Below, piece after piece: positions 7,331-43,195 of a DNA stretch of 64,000 bases. Position 1 is the first letter of the stretch. Every line of letters starts with the position of its first letter. The position numbers were made by a program, and so were the translations under genes. The DNA comes from Candidatus Latescibacterota bacterium. Its GTDB lineage: Bacteria; Latescibacterota; UBA2968. Under the pieces are notes generated by a model. It saw only the letters and a list, made by a program, of their open reading frames with translations. It did not search any database and had not been told where the DNA came from. The stretch lies in NCBI GenBank assembly GCA_965205975.1, contig OZ242195.1, positions 1,776,643 through 1,840,642 on the forward strand. Direction: 5' to 3'.

Positions 7331-7474
7331 CAAGAACTCGACAATTTGACTGCATTCCCATTGCCCTCATTAGATCAGATTCGCCTTAAGCCACTCAACT
7401 ACAGGCCCTCTATATTGACGACAGCTACTCGCTGAATTAGACTTTGACACATCCCCACAGAGATGACGAAAGTA

Positions 7475-7489
7475 ATGTGTGACTTCAAA
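7475..7489 (+). repeat. solo copy of the IS982-like terminal inverted repeat core
   Basis: ATGTGTGACTTCAAA is identical to 15 nt of the left IR of the IS at 37697-37716. No transposase sequence is adjacent. Confidence 0.4.
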
Positions 7490-19679: not shown

Positions 19680-19756
19680 GCGGGAATAGCTCAGCTGGCT
19701 AGAGCATCTGCTTGCCATGCAGAAGGTCGCGGGTTCGAATCCCGTTTCCCGCTCCA
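19680..19756 (+). tRNA. tRNA-Gly (anticodon GCC), CCA encoded
   Basis: Cloverleaf read by hand. Acceptor GCGGGAA/TTCCCGC, D stem GCTC/GAGC, anticodon stem TCTGC/GCAGA with loop TTGCCAT (GCC at 19714-16), T arm GCGGG-TTCGAAT-CCCGT, then TCCA. Confidence 0.9.
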
Positions 19757-37104: not shown

Positions 37105-37242
37105 TCATCTGTAATTCTGATCGTATTTCAGAATATGCTCGAAAAGCCGTTGCATCAATGCGCGAAAATCTTTGATTGACAGCACGACTGCGGTCTTCCG
37201 CCCTTTTGCATCCACGACATATTTGGGTTTGATATTGAGCAT
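37105..37242 (-). CDS. 45-aa antitoxin-like ORF (not in the supplied track)
   Basis: Hand translation: MLNIKPKYVVDAKGRKTAVVLSIKDFRALMQRLFEHILKYDQNYR*. The GRKTAVVLSIKDFRALM segment resembles Phd/YefM-type antitoxin N-domains. Its ATG shares one base with the PIN gene's TGA (TGATG). Confidence 0.5.
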   Translation of the reverse strand: MLNIKPKYVVDAKGRKTAVVLSIKDFRALMQRLFEHILKYDQNYR

Positions 37243-37664
37243 CATTGTTCAACCGTTTTGAGCACAGTTATTCCCATCATCGCAAAATGATCGTCAAATG
37301 CATACGTCTCAGAAATGTTATGCTTCTGACAAACCGCGAAGCTGGTGCAATCTGTAAATGATAATTGTACGGAATCATATTGCCGAAAGAGTTTCTTTGC
37401 TTCTTGAAACAGGATCTTATCAATTTCCGCGACAGTTAAAACACCAGTTTTTTCAACGCTTTCAACCAAGTCAAGAAACTGCACTGCTACCTGATGGCTC
37501 GATCTATATTTAAGCCATGTCACAGTCTCATCAATCACATAATCTGTCGTTAAAAGTCTCGCTTTCTGCTGTTTTAAGCCGTTGTAAATTACAACAGCAT
37601 CGTCATGATATTGATCCCTCTGATTTAAAAGAGCAATCCAGGCACCGCTATCGACAAAAATCAT
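37242..37664 (-). CDS. PIN domain ribonuclease (VapC-like toxin)
   Basis: Four acidic PIN residues in canonical context: IFVDSGAW, IDETV, FTDCTS, FDDHF. 140 aa. Confidence 0.8.
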   Translation of the reverse strand: MIFVDSGAWIALLNQRDQYHDDAVVIYNGLKQQKARLLTTDYVIDETVTWLKYRSSHQVAVQFLDLVESVEKTGVLTVAEIDKILFQEAKKLFRQYDSVQLSFTDCTSFAVCQKHNISETYAFDDHFAMMGITVLKTVEQ

Positions 37665-37696
37665 TATTTTGAACGCTCTCCATAGATAACTTCATC

Positions 37697-38744
37697 ACGC
37701 GATGTGTGACTTCAAAATGTTACGAGGCCGTCAAAATCCAGCGGGTCTCTGTAATTGATGATATTTAGAAAGACACACATGGTATGGGTTAAGATTTTGG
37801 TATGCCACAAGTTTAATAGATGCCAAGCATCTCGCACTTTCATGCGCGCAATATGCAAACGTTCAGTCAATTGTGCGTAAACGGTTTCGACTAATCGCCT
37901 TGTGGTTCTCTTGGCTTTGGGCAAAATGAAAGGGGTGCGTTGTGGATTGTCTTTCATATTGGACTTTAAGGGTGTCTTTATGCGTATGCGGTAGGTATCA
38001 AAGCACCTTTTTTGCCAGTCCAAATCCATAAATGCTGAATCGGCTAAGACGGTTGTATCTCCCATTGTGCCTTCTATGAGTGCGTCTCGGCACTGCTTGT
38101 CGTGTCCATAGGCTTGCAGGATGGGTGCGTGGAGGATAAGGCCATAATCCGTGATCCTCAGACCGCCCTTAAAACCAAAATAGGCTTCGTTTTTAGCAGC
38201 ACAGAAGCCTTTTGAAGGGGTAGGGAACTCAAAGACAGGCTCTGTTTTAAAAATCTTGCGCGTGTGTCGCCTTGCCAGTTTACAGATGGGTAAGGGCAAG
38301 GTGTCTATGATCTGACAGGACGCCTGATGCCCTTCGAGGCAGGCCACAATCCGCTGTTGCATCCACATCTTGACAACCCACAAATTGGCACATTGACGCA
38401 CAAAGGCCGGACGATCTTTCAAAGTGGGAAACCAGCAAGAAAAATGTTCTTTCATCTGCTCATAAAGTTTCTTCTGGCTTGAATACCCCAAAAAGTGACC
38501 CACAATTTCTATGGTGAGGCATTCCACATCACTTAAACCGGGGTCAAAGCCTGCCCGACGCGGCTTGCCATGCACCTCACAATACGCTGGATAGAGGTCG
38601 TCTTCAATAAAACAGTAGATTGCAATGACAAAAAGGGCTAAATTATACATCGGAGGTTCCTTTCGTTGTATGGCTTCTTGTTTTATGGACAATCCAAGAT
38701 AGCCGAGGAACCTCTTTTTGTCTATTTAAAGTCACACATCACGT
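37697..38744 (-). mobile_element. IS982-family-like insertion sequence (1048 bp) with 20-bp imperfect IRs and 9-bp target-site duplication
   Basis: IRs are ACGCGATGTGTGACTTCAAA (37697-37716) and the reverse complement of 38725-38744, ACGTGATGTGTGACTTTAAA (18/20 match). Direct repeat AACTTCATC occurs at 37688-37696 and 38745-38753. Single DDE ORF inside. Confidence 0.85.
37712..38650 (-). CDS. IS982 family DDE transposase
   Basis: N-terminal LFVIAIYCFIEDDL, IIDTLPLPICK (first Asp), VLADSAF (second Asp), VETVYAQL (Glu). ATG 38650 preferred over the track's TTG 38692. The stop codon lies in the left IR. Confidence 0.8.
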   Translation of the reverse strand: MYNLALFVIAIYCFIEDDLYPAYCEVHGKPRRAGFDPGLSDVECLTIEIVGHFLGYSSQKKLYEQMKEHFSCWFPTLKDRPAFVRQCANLWVVKMWMQQRIVACLEGHQASCQIIDTLPLPICKLARRHTRKIFKTEPVFEFPTPSKGFCAAKNEAYFGFKGGLRITDYGLILHAPILQAYGHDKQCRDALIEGTMGDTTVLADSAFMDLDWQKRCFDTYRIRIKTPLKSNMKDNPQRTPFILPKAKRTTRRLVETVYAQLTERLHIARMKVRDAWHLLNLWHTKILTHTMCVFLNIINYRDPLDFDGLVTF

Positions 38745-40409
38745 AACTTCATCATGATTGACAGACCCATCAGTTCGGTCAGATTTTGCAAATCCAACCA
38801 TCTCATCGAGAATCGCGTATCCTTCTTCTATTTTATTTTTTTCTACGATTTCGGGGTTGATTGGACCGCTCCGCACAAGAAAGATAAAGTAATCGAGAAC
38901 GTCTAATGCCTGCCAGATAATTCCTGTGAACACATCTCGTAAATGCTGACTCTCAATGCCAAAGTCCTTAGCAATTTTTCGATAGTTGCGACCTTTGCGA
39001 TGCGCGGCACTGCTGGAACGCAGACTCTGAAGCTTTCGCAGAAAGGCGATGCGCTCGGCAACACCTTCAACATCATGGGCACTAAGCACAGCTTCCAGGC
39101 GTGCAATGCTACCTTTAAGTCTCGCTTTCTGATCCTCAGGAATAAGCGTGTTTAGACGTCTTTCGTTTAGGGAATCAATGAGTATCTTTGTGAGACTCAA
39201 AATCAACGCATCAAAATCGCGTTGCTCGTCAGTAGATGGAATTCTCAAGCCTTGGAAATGATAATCATCATCTGTGTCCAGTGGCAGCAACAACTGCCAC
39301 CCCAGATATTCTTTACAGGTATCTTGCAACTTCTGATAACGTGCCCTAAACAAGTGTTCTGGCTGGTCTGATTCCGTAGCTTCTCCCATGAATTGACGAC
39401 TAAAATAAGTCCTACTCACACCGCCTTCGGGTGGGATATTGTGTGATCGCCAGTGTAGCTGTTCTGTATAGGGAAGGGCTTGCCCAAGATCGCCCAACCA
39501 CGCACAGACTTTGTCGTCGTGATGGTTGTCAATAGTCACTATCCACAAAGAGCCACAGTGCAGCGTCGAATCCTCTACGGTGTATTTACTGGGCTCTTGG
39601 TAGTATTTGTCTAAAACCTGTTTGCGAAAATGCACAGGGGTCAGATAATGGGGAGCATCGGGGTTTGCGCCAGAATAATTTGCCAGAGTACTCGGGTCAG
39701 ATGTATGGGTAATTTCATCTCCGTTCTCATCAACATCAATGATAAATTCCACATGCTTTTTGTTTCGTTTTTTAGATTTCGGTAGGGGTTCAATAAGTCT
39801 CTTTCCTTGTACCAGACTAACCGCTGAAGAGTTACTCTGATCGAAAAAATCATACTTCCAACACATAAGTCCATCCCTCTGCTCACTATCGCCTTTCTTA
39901 AATCCAAGTTCTCGCAACGAATACTTCGAGTGCTCTGGAAAAAAGAATTGGACTGATAGGTACATATCTTTGGCCGCTAAAAACTGACGAATTTCCTTAA
40001 GCCTTATCTTGATGCAGTCTGGCTTCACAATAGCTACTATTTCTTCATTACCTGCATCATCAATCTTAATGTATTCATCCGCCTCTCTATCGTGATATAG
40101 ATTGTGAAAAAGGCGAAACTCCTCGGATATTTCCCTGTAGCCCTCCCGCATTTCATCAAAGTTACGATCAATGATCAAAGGTTTAATTTTGTCGGTGGCT
40201 CCATTATCGGGTGAAAAGTCCCAATATGGGATAGAAAGTGTTTGCTCAATCTGAGCAGGGGGAATTAAAGCACAAGAGATATCGTAATCGTGGGACTCTT
40301 GGCGGTCCAGTAGATACACAGTGATCATCTCGGTCATTTTTAGATCGCGTTGCAACCACTCCAGCCTCTCAGCTTGCGATAGCCGTTTTCGATCTAAATC
40401 AATGCTCAT
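38739..40409 (-). CDS. 556-aa protein of unknown function, 3' end altered by the IS insertion
   Basis: ATG 40409 with AGGAGG 6-7 nt upstream. No motif I can recognise. The present stop (TGA 38741-38739) is inside the IS right IR. AT-rich relative to flanking genes (by eye). Confidence 0.7.
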   Translation of the reverse strand: MSIDLDRKRLSQAERLEWLQRDLKMTEMITVYLLDRQESHDYDISCALIPPAQIEQTLSIPYWDFSPDNGATDKIKPLIIDRNFDEMREGYREISEEFRLFHNLYHDREADEYIKIDDAGNEEIVAIVKPDCIKIRLKEIRQFLAAKDMYLSVQFFFPEHSKYSLRELGFKKGDSEQRDGLMCWKYDFFDQSNSSAVSLVQGKRLIEPLPKSKKRNKKHVEFIIDVDENGDEITHTSDPSTLANYSGANPDAPHYLTPVHFRKQVLDKYYQEPSKYTVEDSTLHCGSLWIVTIDNHHDDKVCAWLGDLGQALPYTEQLHWRSHNIPPEGGVSRTYFSRQFMGEATESDQPEHLFRARYQKLQDTCKEYLGWQLLLPLDTDDDYHFQGLRIPSTDEQRDFDALILSLTKILIDSLNERRLNTLIPEDQKARLKGSIARLEAVLSAHDVEGVAERIAFLRKLQSLRSSSAAHRKGRNYRKIAKDFGIESQHLRDVFTGIIWQALDVLDYFIFLVRSGPINPEIVEKNKIEEGYAILDEMVGFAKSDRTDGSVNHDEVT

Positions 40410-40450
40410 CACTATCCTCCTTCCGCTATTTTGAATCCTGATCAAACAAA

Positions 40451-40478
40451 TGTATAGCACAAAAACCACGTTTGTCAA
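40451..40478 (-). promoter_or_regulatory. candidate sigma70-type promoter for the 556-aa gene cassette
   Basis: Minus strand TTGACA (40478-40473), 16-nt spacer, TATACA (40456-40451), about 40 nt upstream of the ATG. Confidence 0.4.
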
Positions 40479-43155: not shown

Positions 43156-43195
43156 AGTCCCCCATCGCAATAATACGCGATGGGGGACTTTTATT
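43156..43195. terminator. bidirectional rho-independent terminator between convergent genes
   Basis: 13-bp perfect stem AGTCCCCCATCGC / GCGATGGGGGACT. TTTATT follows on the plus strand and TTTTTT follows on the minus strand. Confidence 0.7.

Follow-up and report, generated by a model that had tools for sequence, protein, structure and literature searches.

We wanted to know what kind of system is encoded by a short AT-rich cassette (positions 37105-40478) that lies in a window of 64,000 nucleotides from a Candidatus Latescibacterota bacterium (assembly GCA_965205975.1, contig OZ242195.1, positions 1,776,643 to 1,840,642 of the forward strand). The original prediction, made from the letters of the window alone, described a 556-aa protein without recognisable motif, a VapC-type PIN nuclease and a downstream 45-aa antitoxin-like open reading frame (ORF), and proposed that they form a three-component toxin-antitoxin or abortive-infection system with an unusual gene order. 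Our analysis points to a pair of genes. We propose that it derives from VapBC, that its antitoxin peptide was grafted onto a restriction-modification-linked, probably HEPN-type defence protein, and that release of the PIN is tied to the state or the loss of that protein. We put the probability of this reading at about 0.68. The copy in the window is best seen as decaying.

All features of the cassette are on the minus strand. They are the following (positions are those of the window).

40478-40451, minus strand: promoter-like site TTGACA-16 nt-TATACA (TTGACA 40478-40473; TATACA 40456-40451), read directly.
40421-40416, minus strand: AGGAGG ribosome-binding site, 6 nt before the ATG at 40409, read directly.
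38745-40409, minus strand: codons 1-555 of the large ORF (to ...NHDEV), the part before the insertion sequence (IS), from ORF reading and in-silico excision.
38865-39227, minus strand: putative HEPN-like helical domain, residues ~395-515, from motif conservation, position in the model and Foldseek.
38745-38855, minus strand: VapB-like C-terminal tail, residues 519-555 (the part before the IS), found only in PIN-linked homologues and compared by hhalign.
37697-38744, minus strand: IS982-family insertion sequence, 1048 bp, from transposase match, repeats and duplication.
37712-38650, minus strand: IS982-family transposase (NCBIfam transpos_IS982 NF033520, 163 bits vs cut-off 130).
37664-37696, minus strand: second copy of the target duplication, the last 7 tail codons (IYGERSK, 37667-37687) and the TAA (37664-37666) that overlaps the PIN ATG, from direct reading and the ends of homologues.
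37242-37664, minus strand: VapC-type PIN nuclease gene, 140 aa, intact (Pfam PIN, E = 1.8e-12, 48 bits vs cut-off 23.6).
37105-37245, minus strand: RelB/Phd-like antitoxin remnant, 46 aa, from Pfam (RelB-like, E = 4e-6) and DNA alignment.

The main evidence comes from a comparison of 80 loci, all from species-representative genomes, to which four further close relatives (L090-L093) were added. The PIN is a canonical VapC-type nuclease, as had been proposed, and its acidic tetrad (D5, E46, D105, D124) is invariant across the 37 module PINs that were checked. We observed a C-terminal tail of ~45 aa on the large protein in 43 of the 80 loci. A complete or nearly complete PIN gene lies directly downstream in 38 of these 43, with an ATGA or TAATG overlap, and one more tail-bearing locus has a PIN cut at the contig end (39/43 with PIN in all). 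Of the other four, L025, L039 and L071 retain remnants of a PIN, and the contig of L018 ends without a PIN having been seen. Beside the tail-less relatives, which end at about residue 518, there was no PIN at all (0/37 loci). This distribution argues that the large protein and the PIN are a conserved, translationally coupled pair, and this part of the earlier proposal stands. The distribution also refutes the idea that a solitary vapC without antitoxin merely came to lie beside an unrelated gene. Orphan toxin genes are generally frequent and nothing further speaks for such a coincidence, while the overlap of stop and start is kept across phyla and the tail carries a VapB-like motif; we regard it as extremely improbable.

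In the window the two genes are separated by the insertion sequence, and the large ORF as found has 556 aa, with its TGA stop inside the IS. After in-silico removal of the IS and of one copy of its 9-bp duplication, the ORF encodes a 562-aa protein ending ...SVNHDEVIYGERSK (DEVIYGERSK-TAA), and the TAA shares a base with the PIN ATG (TAATG). The end and the junction agree with what had been predicted; the length given for the protein, 556 aa, has to be corrected. The original prediction also called for a look at IS-free relatives. Their large proteins end ...DE.IYELRSKP and their stop overlaps the PIN start, as TAATG in L002 and as a 4-nt ATGA elsewhere. Judging from these ends, the reconstructed junction is genuine.

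The tail itself resembles a part of known antitoxins. The AlphaFold2 (AF2) model of the large protein was of high confidence (predicted local distance difference test, pLDDT, 93.5; predicted template modelling score, pTM, 0.85), and the tail was its sole low-confidence part (pLDDT 54-69), which fits a segment that folds on a partner. The tail ends in the motif TDGSVNHDEVIY, and the end of the large-protein tail reads ...RTDGSVNHDEVIYELRSKP. The nearest annotated plasmid relatives of the PIN are ~30-34% identical to it and come from haloarchaea, cyanobacteria and Salinibacter. We compared the tail with the nine small genes upstream of such plasmid-borne relatives. In 9/9 a small gene (69-117 aa) abuts the PIN start, and the N-termini of the products vary (AbrB, HTH, other). 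Three of the nine have tail-like C-termini (...GASTNHDAYLYGT, ...PSINHDRYLYSNPHE and ...PTDGAEEHDHYLYGSPKKRQ), their last residues being ...STNHDAYLYGT, ...SINHDRYLYSNPHE and ...TDGAEEHDHYLYGSPKK, and four more carry a partial motif. What the tail and the VapB antitoxins of related PINs have in common is S-x-N-H-D-x-x-[IL]-Y. A hidden Markov model (HMM) of the tail placed the three motif-bearing antitoxins 1st-3rd among 8,083 sequences. The pattern [NE]HD..[ILVM]Y was not found in the last 16 residues of any of the decoy ORFs (0/8,074), and hhalign of the tails against the antitoxin C-termini gave a probability of 81% (P = 1.2e-5, 22 columns).

In VapBC systems the C-terminal end of the antitoxin is the inhibitory element. 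The end of the tail looks like the putative toxin-binding end of a VapB-type antitoxin, and since it sits at the C-terminus of the large protein, the antitoxin element is upstream as usual and the gene order is canonical. This contradicts the non-canonical order of the original prediction. By this similarity the large protein would be the antitoxin equivalent, with a core of ~520 aa in place of the DNA-binding domain. The locus shares with VapBC a PIN with all four acidic residues, an antitoxin element upstream with overlapping stop and start, and the common motif. It differs in that the antitoxin equivalent has 562 aa and is not small, and in that the usual 40-60-aa DNA-binding domain (AbrB, ribbon-helix-helix (RHH), helix-turn-helix (HTH) or Phd) is replaced by the ~520-aa core. 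We detected no DNA-binding domain by Pfam in the large protein or in 89 diverse relatives.

We therefore propose for consideration the following mechanism. The locus would represent a two-gene, horizontally mobile defence-island module, of which the window holds a decaying copy. The first gene would encode a ~560-aa protein made of the ~520-aa core and a flexible ~45-residue tail with the VapB-like motif at its end, and the second its cognate VapC-type PIN RNase, coupled by the overlap of stop and start. The tail would keep the PIN inactive, as VapB does VapC. With the large protein in the place of the small DNA-binding domain of an antitoxin, PIN activity would depend on the state or the presence of that protein; when it is triggered, degraded or lost, the PIN would be freed, RNA would be cut and the cell would be arrested. 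The output may be abortive infection or a guard function.

The core gave no match to known families. Pfam, NCBIfam and PADLOC returned zero significant matches for the large protein, and Pfam also none for the 89 relatives and the family consensus sequences, so the claim that it belongs to no known or housekeeping family holds. The family appears to be undescribed. Known anti-phage systems were compared with PADLOC-DB v2.0, a check that had been suggested for the locus; it yielded for the large protein only an insignificant match to RTas1465 (E = 0.0086, 13.8 bits) and for the PIN and the small ORF none. A retron or DRT was rejected, this insignificant match being the sole one. Sequence-profile searches of the PDB gave no match, whether the query was the whole family or the C-terminal domain, Foldseek of the full model found nothing below E = 1e-3 in the PDB, and nothing was found in BFVD. 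We also rejected an N-terminal PD-(D/E)xK nuclease, as no (D/E)xK is conserved around K203, and a system of the toxin-antitoxin-chaperone (TAC) type, as there is no SecB-like gene.

In the AF2 model residues 1-~330 are beta-rich and residues ~330-518 are helical. The strongest motif of the family, LRSxGxAHRKG, lies in the helical part and reads LRSSSAAHRKG in the window (R464 at 39018-39020, H470 at 39000-39002). All of 138 diverse members have H470, and conservation reaches 90% or more at R464, K472 and G473. The spacing between R and H is 4-5 residues (R-x5-H in the window protein), and the residue after R is usually S. HEPN domains are described as having an R-x4-6-H motif which has a polar residue after R and extends from a helix end into the next loop (PMC3710099), and the motif of the core agrees with this description. 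In the model, helix 450-467 carries R464 in its final turn and H470 belongs to the loop that comes after it, which is the position of the HEPN motif according to the same source. We modelled residues 326-519 separately (pLDDT 88.9), and the top PDB match in Foldseek was the HEPN toxin HpeT (6m6u_G, E = 0.38, probability 0.72), which is not significant. Two further HEPN entries, 8xeh_D and 1wwp_A, were among the top 50, also non-significant (E >= 0.38). We take the C-terminal helical domain as a HEPN domain as a lead, and consider the assignment somewhat probable.

A few family members have additional parts. P0179 (857 aa) carries a PNP_UDP_1 domain at its C-terminus (E = 4e-12) and no longer has the R..H motif, P0128 (764 aa) has an N-terminal HTH_3, and P0227 and P0254 (~780-800 aa) have a helical C-terminal extension of ~230 aa with no Pfam match.

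The tail might also serve to recruit the PIN and not to inhibit it. The large protein and the PIN would then form a complex in which the PIN is the constitutive nuclease subunit, and the trigger would regulate this complex as a whole. Large non-VapB partners of VapC-like PINs do occur in tested defence systems: HEC-03 is a defence pair of an ABC ATPase and a VapC-like PIN, and its HEC-03A is unrelated to VapB (Payne et al., bioRxiv 2024.01.29.577857; 10.1101/2024.01.29.577857). Our locus resembles HEC-03 in having a VapC-like PIN with a large non-VapB partner in a defence-embedded context. It differs in that the partner is not an ATPase, has no PADLOC match and bears a recognisable VapB-like tail. 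The PNP_UDP_1-fused member without R..H motif likewise suggests exchangeable effectors, but such a fusion is known from one example. The shared motif is specifically the antitoxin C-terminal end of related PINs, which is inhibitory in VapBC, and we consider pure recruitment quite unlikely compared with a tail that would inhibit the PIN.

The neighbours of the large gene in other genomes point to defence. Type I restriction-modification genes are directly upstream in six short-form loci in all, a minority of the tail-less relatives. One of these is L055, where the order is hsdM-hsdS-X-hsdR with the short form at X, and the X slot is the position of prrC in EcoprrI (PMC3710099). Models of type I methyltransferases matched 7/124 neighbour proteins. 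In 13 long-form loci a Type ISP-like protein of ~1,030 aa is encoded directly upstream on the same strand (L002 (2909-5998), L007, L011-L013, L016, L027-L029, L052, L053, L059 and L071). It consists of a coupler, an N6 methyltransferase and the Type_ISP_C specificity domain, without the nuclease and helicase parts, and in L002 its stop overlaps the start of the large gene. Other neighbours are an AAA_15 ATPase pair, DndC/DndD-like genes and HNH_2 genes. In the window the large gene does not adjoin a restriction-modification system.

In Poribacteria we noted an island (L014, L020, L027, L029, L038, L039, L052, L053 and L071) which adjoins a guanylate-kinase-like gene. Its order is an AAA_15/AAA_21 ATPase (~480-530 aa), a Pfam-less protein of ~155-167 aa, the ISP-like methyltransferase in some loci, the large gene and the PIN.

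The position in L055 recalls PrrC of EcoprrI and RloC, which are HEPN anticodon nucleases in type I operons. A tail-less relative occupies the same slot, and the R-x(4-5)-H motif is in a C-terminal helical domain at the position described for HEPN, the HEPN assignment being a lead. Against this, the core lacks the ABC-ATPase N-terminal domain and matches neither PrrC nor RloC models, and the window copy is not beside a restriction-modification system. Membership in the PrrC/RloC group was rejected, with no ATPase domain in the Pfam, NCBIfam and PADLOC scans and an N-terminal region predicted to be mostly beta.

A broader and more tentative idea is that the ~520-aa core is a new widespread anti-phage family, with a beta-rich sensor and a divergent HEPN RNase, which would act as a PrrC-like back-up of restriction-modification. 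The output would be modular. Most members would use their own HEPN-like site, some a fused PNP nucleosidase, and those of sponge-type lineages a VapC PIN recruited in trans via the grafted VapB peptide. We find this possible but doubtful. If it were true, immune sensors would have, in the PIN route, a new means of taking over the toxins of toxin-antitoxin systems as effectors. A very large family without any model, found in classic defence contexts including a prrC-like slot, is in any case a candidate new immune family.

Each part of the locus belongs to a known class: the nuclease is a PIN, the antitoxin peptide is VapB-like, the core may include a HEPN domain, the insertion is an IS982 element and the small ORF is a RelB-like remnant. 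The architecture is new, with an antitoxin equivalent of 560 aa whose core comes from an uncharacterised family, and the nearest published analogues, HEC-03, PrrC and CapRel, have a different partner protein. The proposed graft would be a route of toxin-antitoxin rewiring in which only the toxin-binding peptide of VapB was joined to an unrelated large defence-island protein, and it would tie the PIN RNase to that protein instead of to a DNA-binding autoregulator. In concept this is similar to CapRel, in which an antitoxin element is joined to a larger sensing moiety. In CapRel toxin and antitoxin are reportedly in one polypeptide, the toxin being a RelA/SpoT-like pyrophosphokinase whose release is said to depend on the state of the sensor. 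Here the PIN toxin is separate, and the antitoxin peptide would be fused to an uncharacterised core.

We then have to place the small downstream ORF, which the original prediction took as a third component. It has 46 aa from its first ATG, which makes a 4-nt ATGA overlap with the PIN stop, and 45 aa from the second (TGATG). The ORF and the TGATG are present as described, and its N-terminal half matches Pfam RelB-like and PhdYeFM. The RelB-like score is 26.9 bits in the window and 34 bits in full-length relatives (cut-off 27). Alignment with five relatives (63-68 aa) shows that the window copy has lost 55 nt near 37144, and the resulting frameshift replaces its C-terminal half. Small ORFs of this kind were found in 5/38 loci with a complete or nearly complete PIN, which are the five closest Latescibacterota, and also in the window and in L090-L093. 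The other 33 such loci do not have it. L090 (2419-2888) and L091 represent the closest relative, with the locus at the chromosomal site that it has in the window. In both, a ParE_toxin gene (87 aa) comes after the RelB-like ORF and overlaps it; we found this toxin downstream only there, and none in the window or in other loci. A tblastn search of plasmids with the full-length small antitoxin gave no match.

In the three-component model the small ORF is the antitoxin of the PIN, and the large protein acts as sensor, regulator or chaperone. The small ORF does overlap the PIN stop in the window and in five relatives and it is RelB/Phd-like, and Phd-type antitoxins are known partners of PIN toxins (surveys of type II toxin-antitoxin systems). 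It is, however, not part of a conserved module. Besides its absence from the 33 loci, it precedes the overlapping ParE gene in L090/L091 where the PIN is only a remnant, it survives an exact deletion of the PIN in L092/L093, it is frameshifted in the window although the PIN is intact, and the VapB-like motif sits on the large protein itself. This distribution largely refutes the model, which we now hold to be very unlikely. The simplest reading is that the small ORF is an orphaned RelB/Phd-type antitoxin of a neighbouring RelB-ParE pair and lies outside the two-gene module. Its likeness to the RelB-ParE/Phd antitoxins consists in the matching N-terminal half and the ParE_toxin gene downstream in L090/L091; the window differs from them in having no ParE gene and in the C-terminal half lost to the deletion.

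The element that interrupts the copy in the window carries 16-bp inverted repeats (ACG[T/C]GATGTGTGACTT, one mismatch, at 37697-37712 and 38729-38744) and is flanked by a perfect 9-bp target duplication, GATGAAGTT (first copy 38745-38753, second 37688-37696). It has the DDE transposase, terminal inverted repeats and target-site duplication that define an IS982 element. By the insertion the tail loses its last 7 residues, the I-Y of the motif among them, and the PIN is cut off from promoter and translational coupling alike. The reading frame of the PIN is still intact.

Relatives show at least 4 further independent routes by which the PIN was disabled. Only ~20 codons of the PIN are left in L090/L091; the former ATG start there reads CTG, and 5 bp are inserted in the tail. 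In L092 (2330-2450) and L093 the PIN and the end of the tail are deleted exactly between two ATGATG microhomologies, and the large ORF (...SVNHDDA*) now abuts the RelB-like ORF. The PIN was thus lost repeatedly and independently while the large ORF stayed open (window, L025, L039, L071, L090/L091 and L092/L093). The window and its close relatives display independent disarming of a toxin by IS insertion, microhomology deletion and loss of a start codon.

The large protein of the window and that of its 86%-identical relative P0002 lack two segments of 22 aa and 8 aa (around residues 65-70 and 212-214). Other aligned members of the family have them, and they include two columns that are at least 90% conserved (P, Y). 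Their absence may be degeneration or lineage-specific trimming.

The large protein itself is widespread. We found more than 1,900 homologues, and the family comprises 2,338 clusters, counted with one representative per 50%-identity cluster; almost all members listed from this search are of the tail-less short form. Because most homologues have neither tail nor PIN, PIN coupling is a derived trait of a small subfamily and not of the family. The original prediction had named homologues mostly without an adjacent PIN as an outcome that would refute it; this outcome is seen for the family at large, and the tail-bearing subfamily is the exception.

The hosts of the tail-plus-PIN subfamily are Latescibacterota, Poribacteria, Caldilineaceae and Nitrospinota metagenome-assembled genomes (MAGs). 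These phyla are typical of sponge microbiomes (PMC5649159, PMC8163846), and from the MAG names together with these sources the module hosts would belong to phyla typical of marine sponges. Module proteins are 53-77% identical across phyla, and the GC content of the module is below that of its flanks in 38/38 loci; together these values point to exchange of defence genes between phyla in that habitat. The cassette in the window is likewise AT-rich, as first described (39-44% GC vs 53-54% in the flanking genes).

We constructed a neighbour-joining (NJ) tree of the core region for the 80 loci. In this tree two tail-bearing groups (Latescibacterota/Nitrospinota and Caldilineaceae/Poribacteria) have tail-less forms between them, and the tail-less Poribacteria protein L061 nests among tail-bearing ones. 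The pattern suggests that tail and PIN were lost, or that recombination took place.

Several results weigh against the VapBC-derived pair as we propose it. Interaction of the tail with the PIN, toxicity of the PIN and defence by the module are predictions. The similarity between tail and VapB spans ~22 residues, the tail HMM scores of the three antitoxins are low (6-8 bits), and the rest of the nine antitoxins match partly at most. The HEPN assignment is weak, with Foldseek at E = 0.38 and no match of any Pfam HEPN family even to the family consensus. For the N-terminal ~330 residues we found no relative that can be interpreted: the top match of the full model was Avs3 (8dgc, E = 0.011, 191 columns), and since it was gone when the C-terminal domain was searched alone, it probably involves the N-terminal region. 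Monophyly of the tail-bearing forms is unsupported by the NJ tree, which is crude. Finally, the PIN was lost repeatedly with the large ORF open, so it is dispensable and may be a selfish addiction element and not an immune effector.

This last point leads to the strongest rival, pure addiction. Here the VapB tail and the VapC would stabilise the large gene or its island by post-segregational killing, the function of the large protein would be separate, and the PIN would have no sensing or immune role. Most family members function without a PIN, the PIN was deleted or disrupted repeatedly with the large ORF intact (window, L025, L039 and L090-L093), and tail and PIN resemble a bolt-on from an ordinary VapBC pair. 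On the other hand, the fusion is kept in at least 4 bacterial phyla with strict coupling, which fits functional integration at least equally well, and sequence alone does not separate the two. We judge addiction without any further role to be unlikely, and prefer a PIN whose release would be tied to the large protein.

Some features of the surroundings complete the description of the window. The AGGAGG ribosome-binding site is as had been described. The TTGACA-16-TATACA promoter is also present, and the scan yielded in addition TTGACA-18-TACATT (10/12 matches). Since promoter-like sites in the region were no more frequent than in shuffled sequence (6 found vs 6.9 expected), the promoter is plausible but unproven. 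Synteny with the window was seen in L001, L003 and L090, where an MBL-fold gene lies upstream, and a 245-aa gene and a gene for an ABC substrate-binding protein lie downstream; this places the window on a Latescibacterota chromosome. In the whole 64 kb of the window a single RNA gene was detected, tRNA-Gly(GCC) at 19680-19756; as it does not adjoin the cassette, the cassette is not a tRNA-targeted island.

We found no second copy of the IS982-family element within the window. Two 16-mers (7470-7485 and 43175-43190) match its inverted repeat with two mismatches each. Chance alone would give ~0.05 matches of any kind over the whole window, and no transposase similarity was found near the two sites. 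They may be relics of solo repeats or chance matches. A degenerate second PIN of the module type, the C-terminal part only, was seen in L016 (8764-9105), ~570 bp downstream of the intact PIN.

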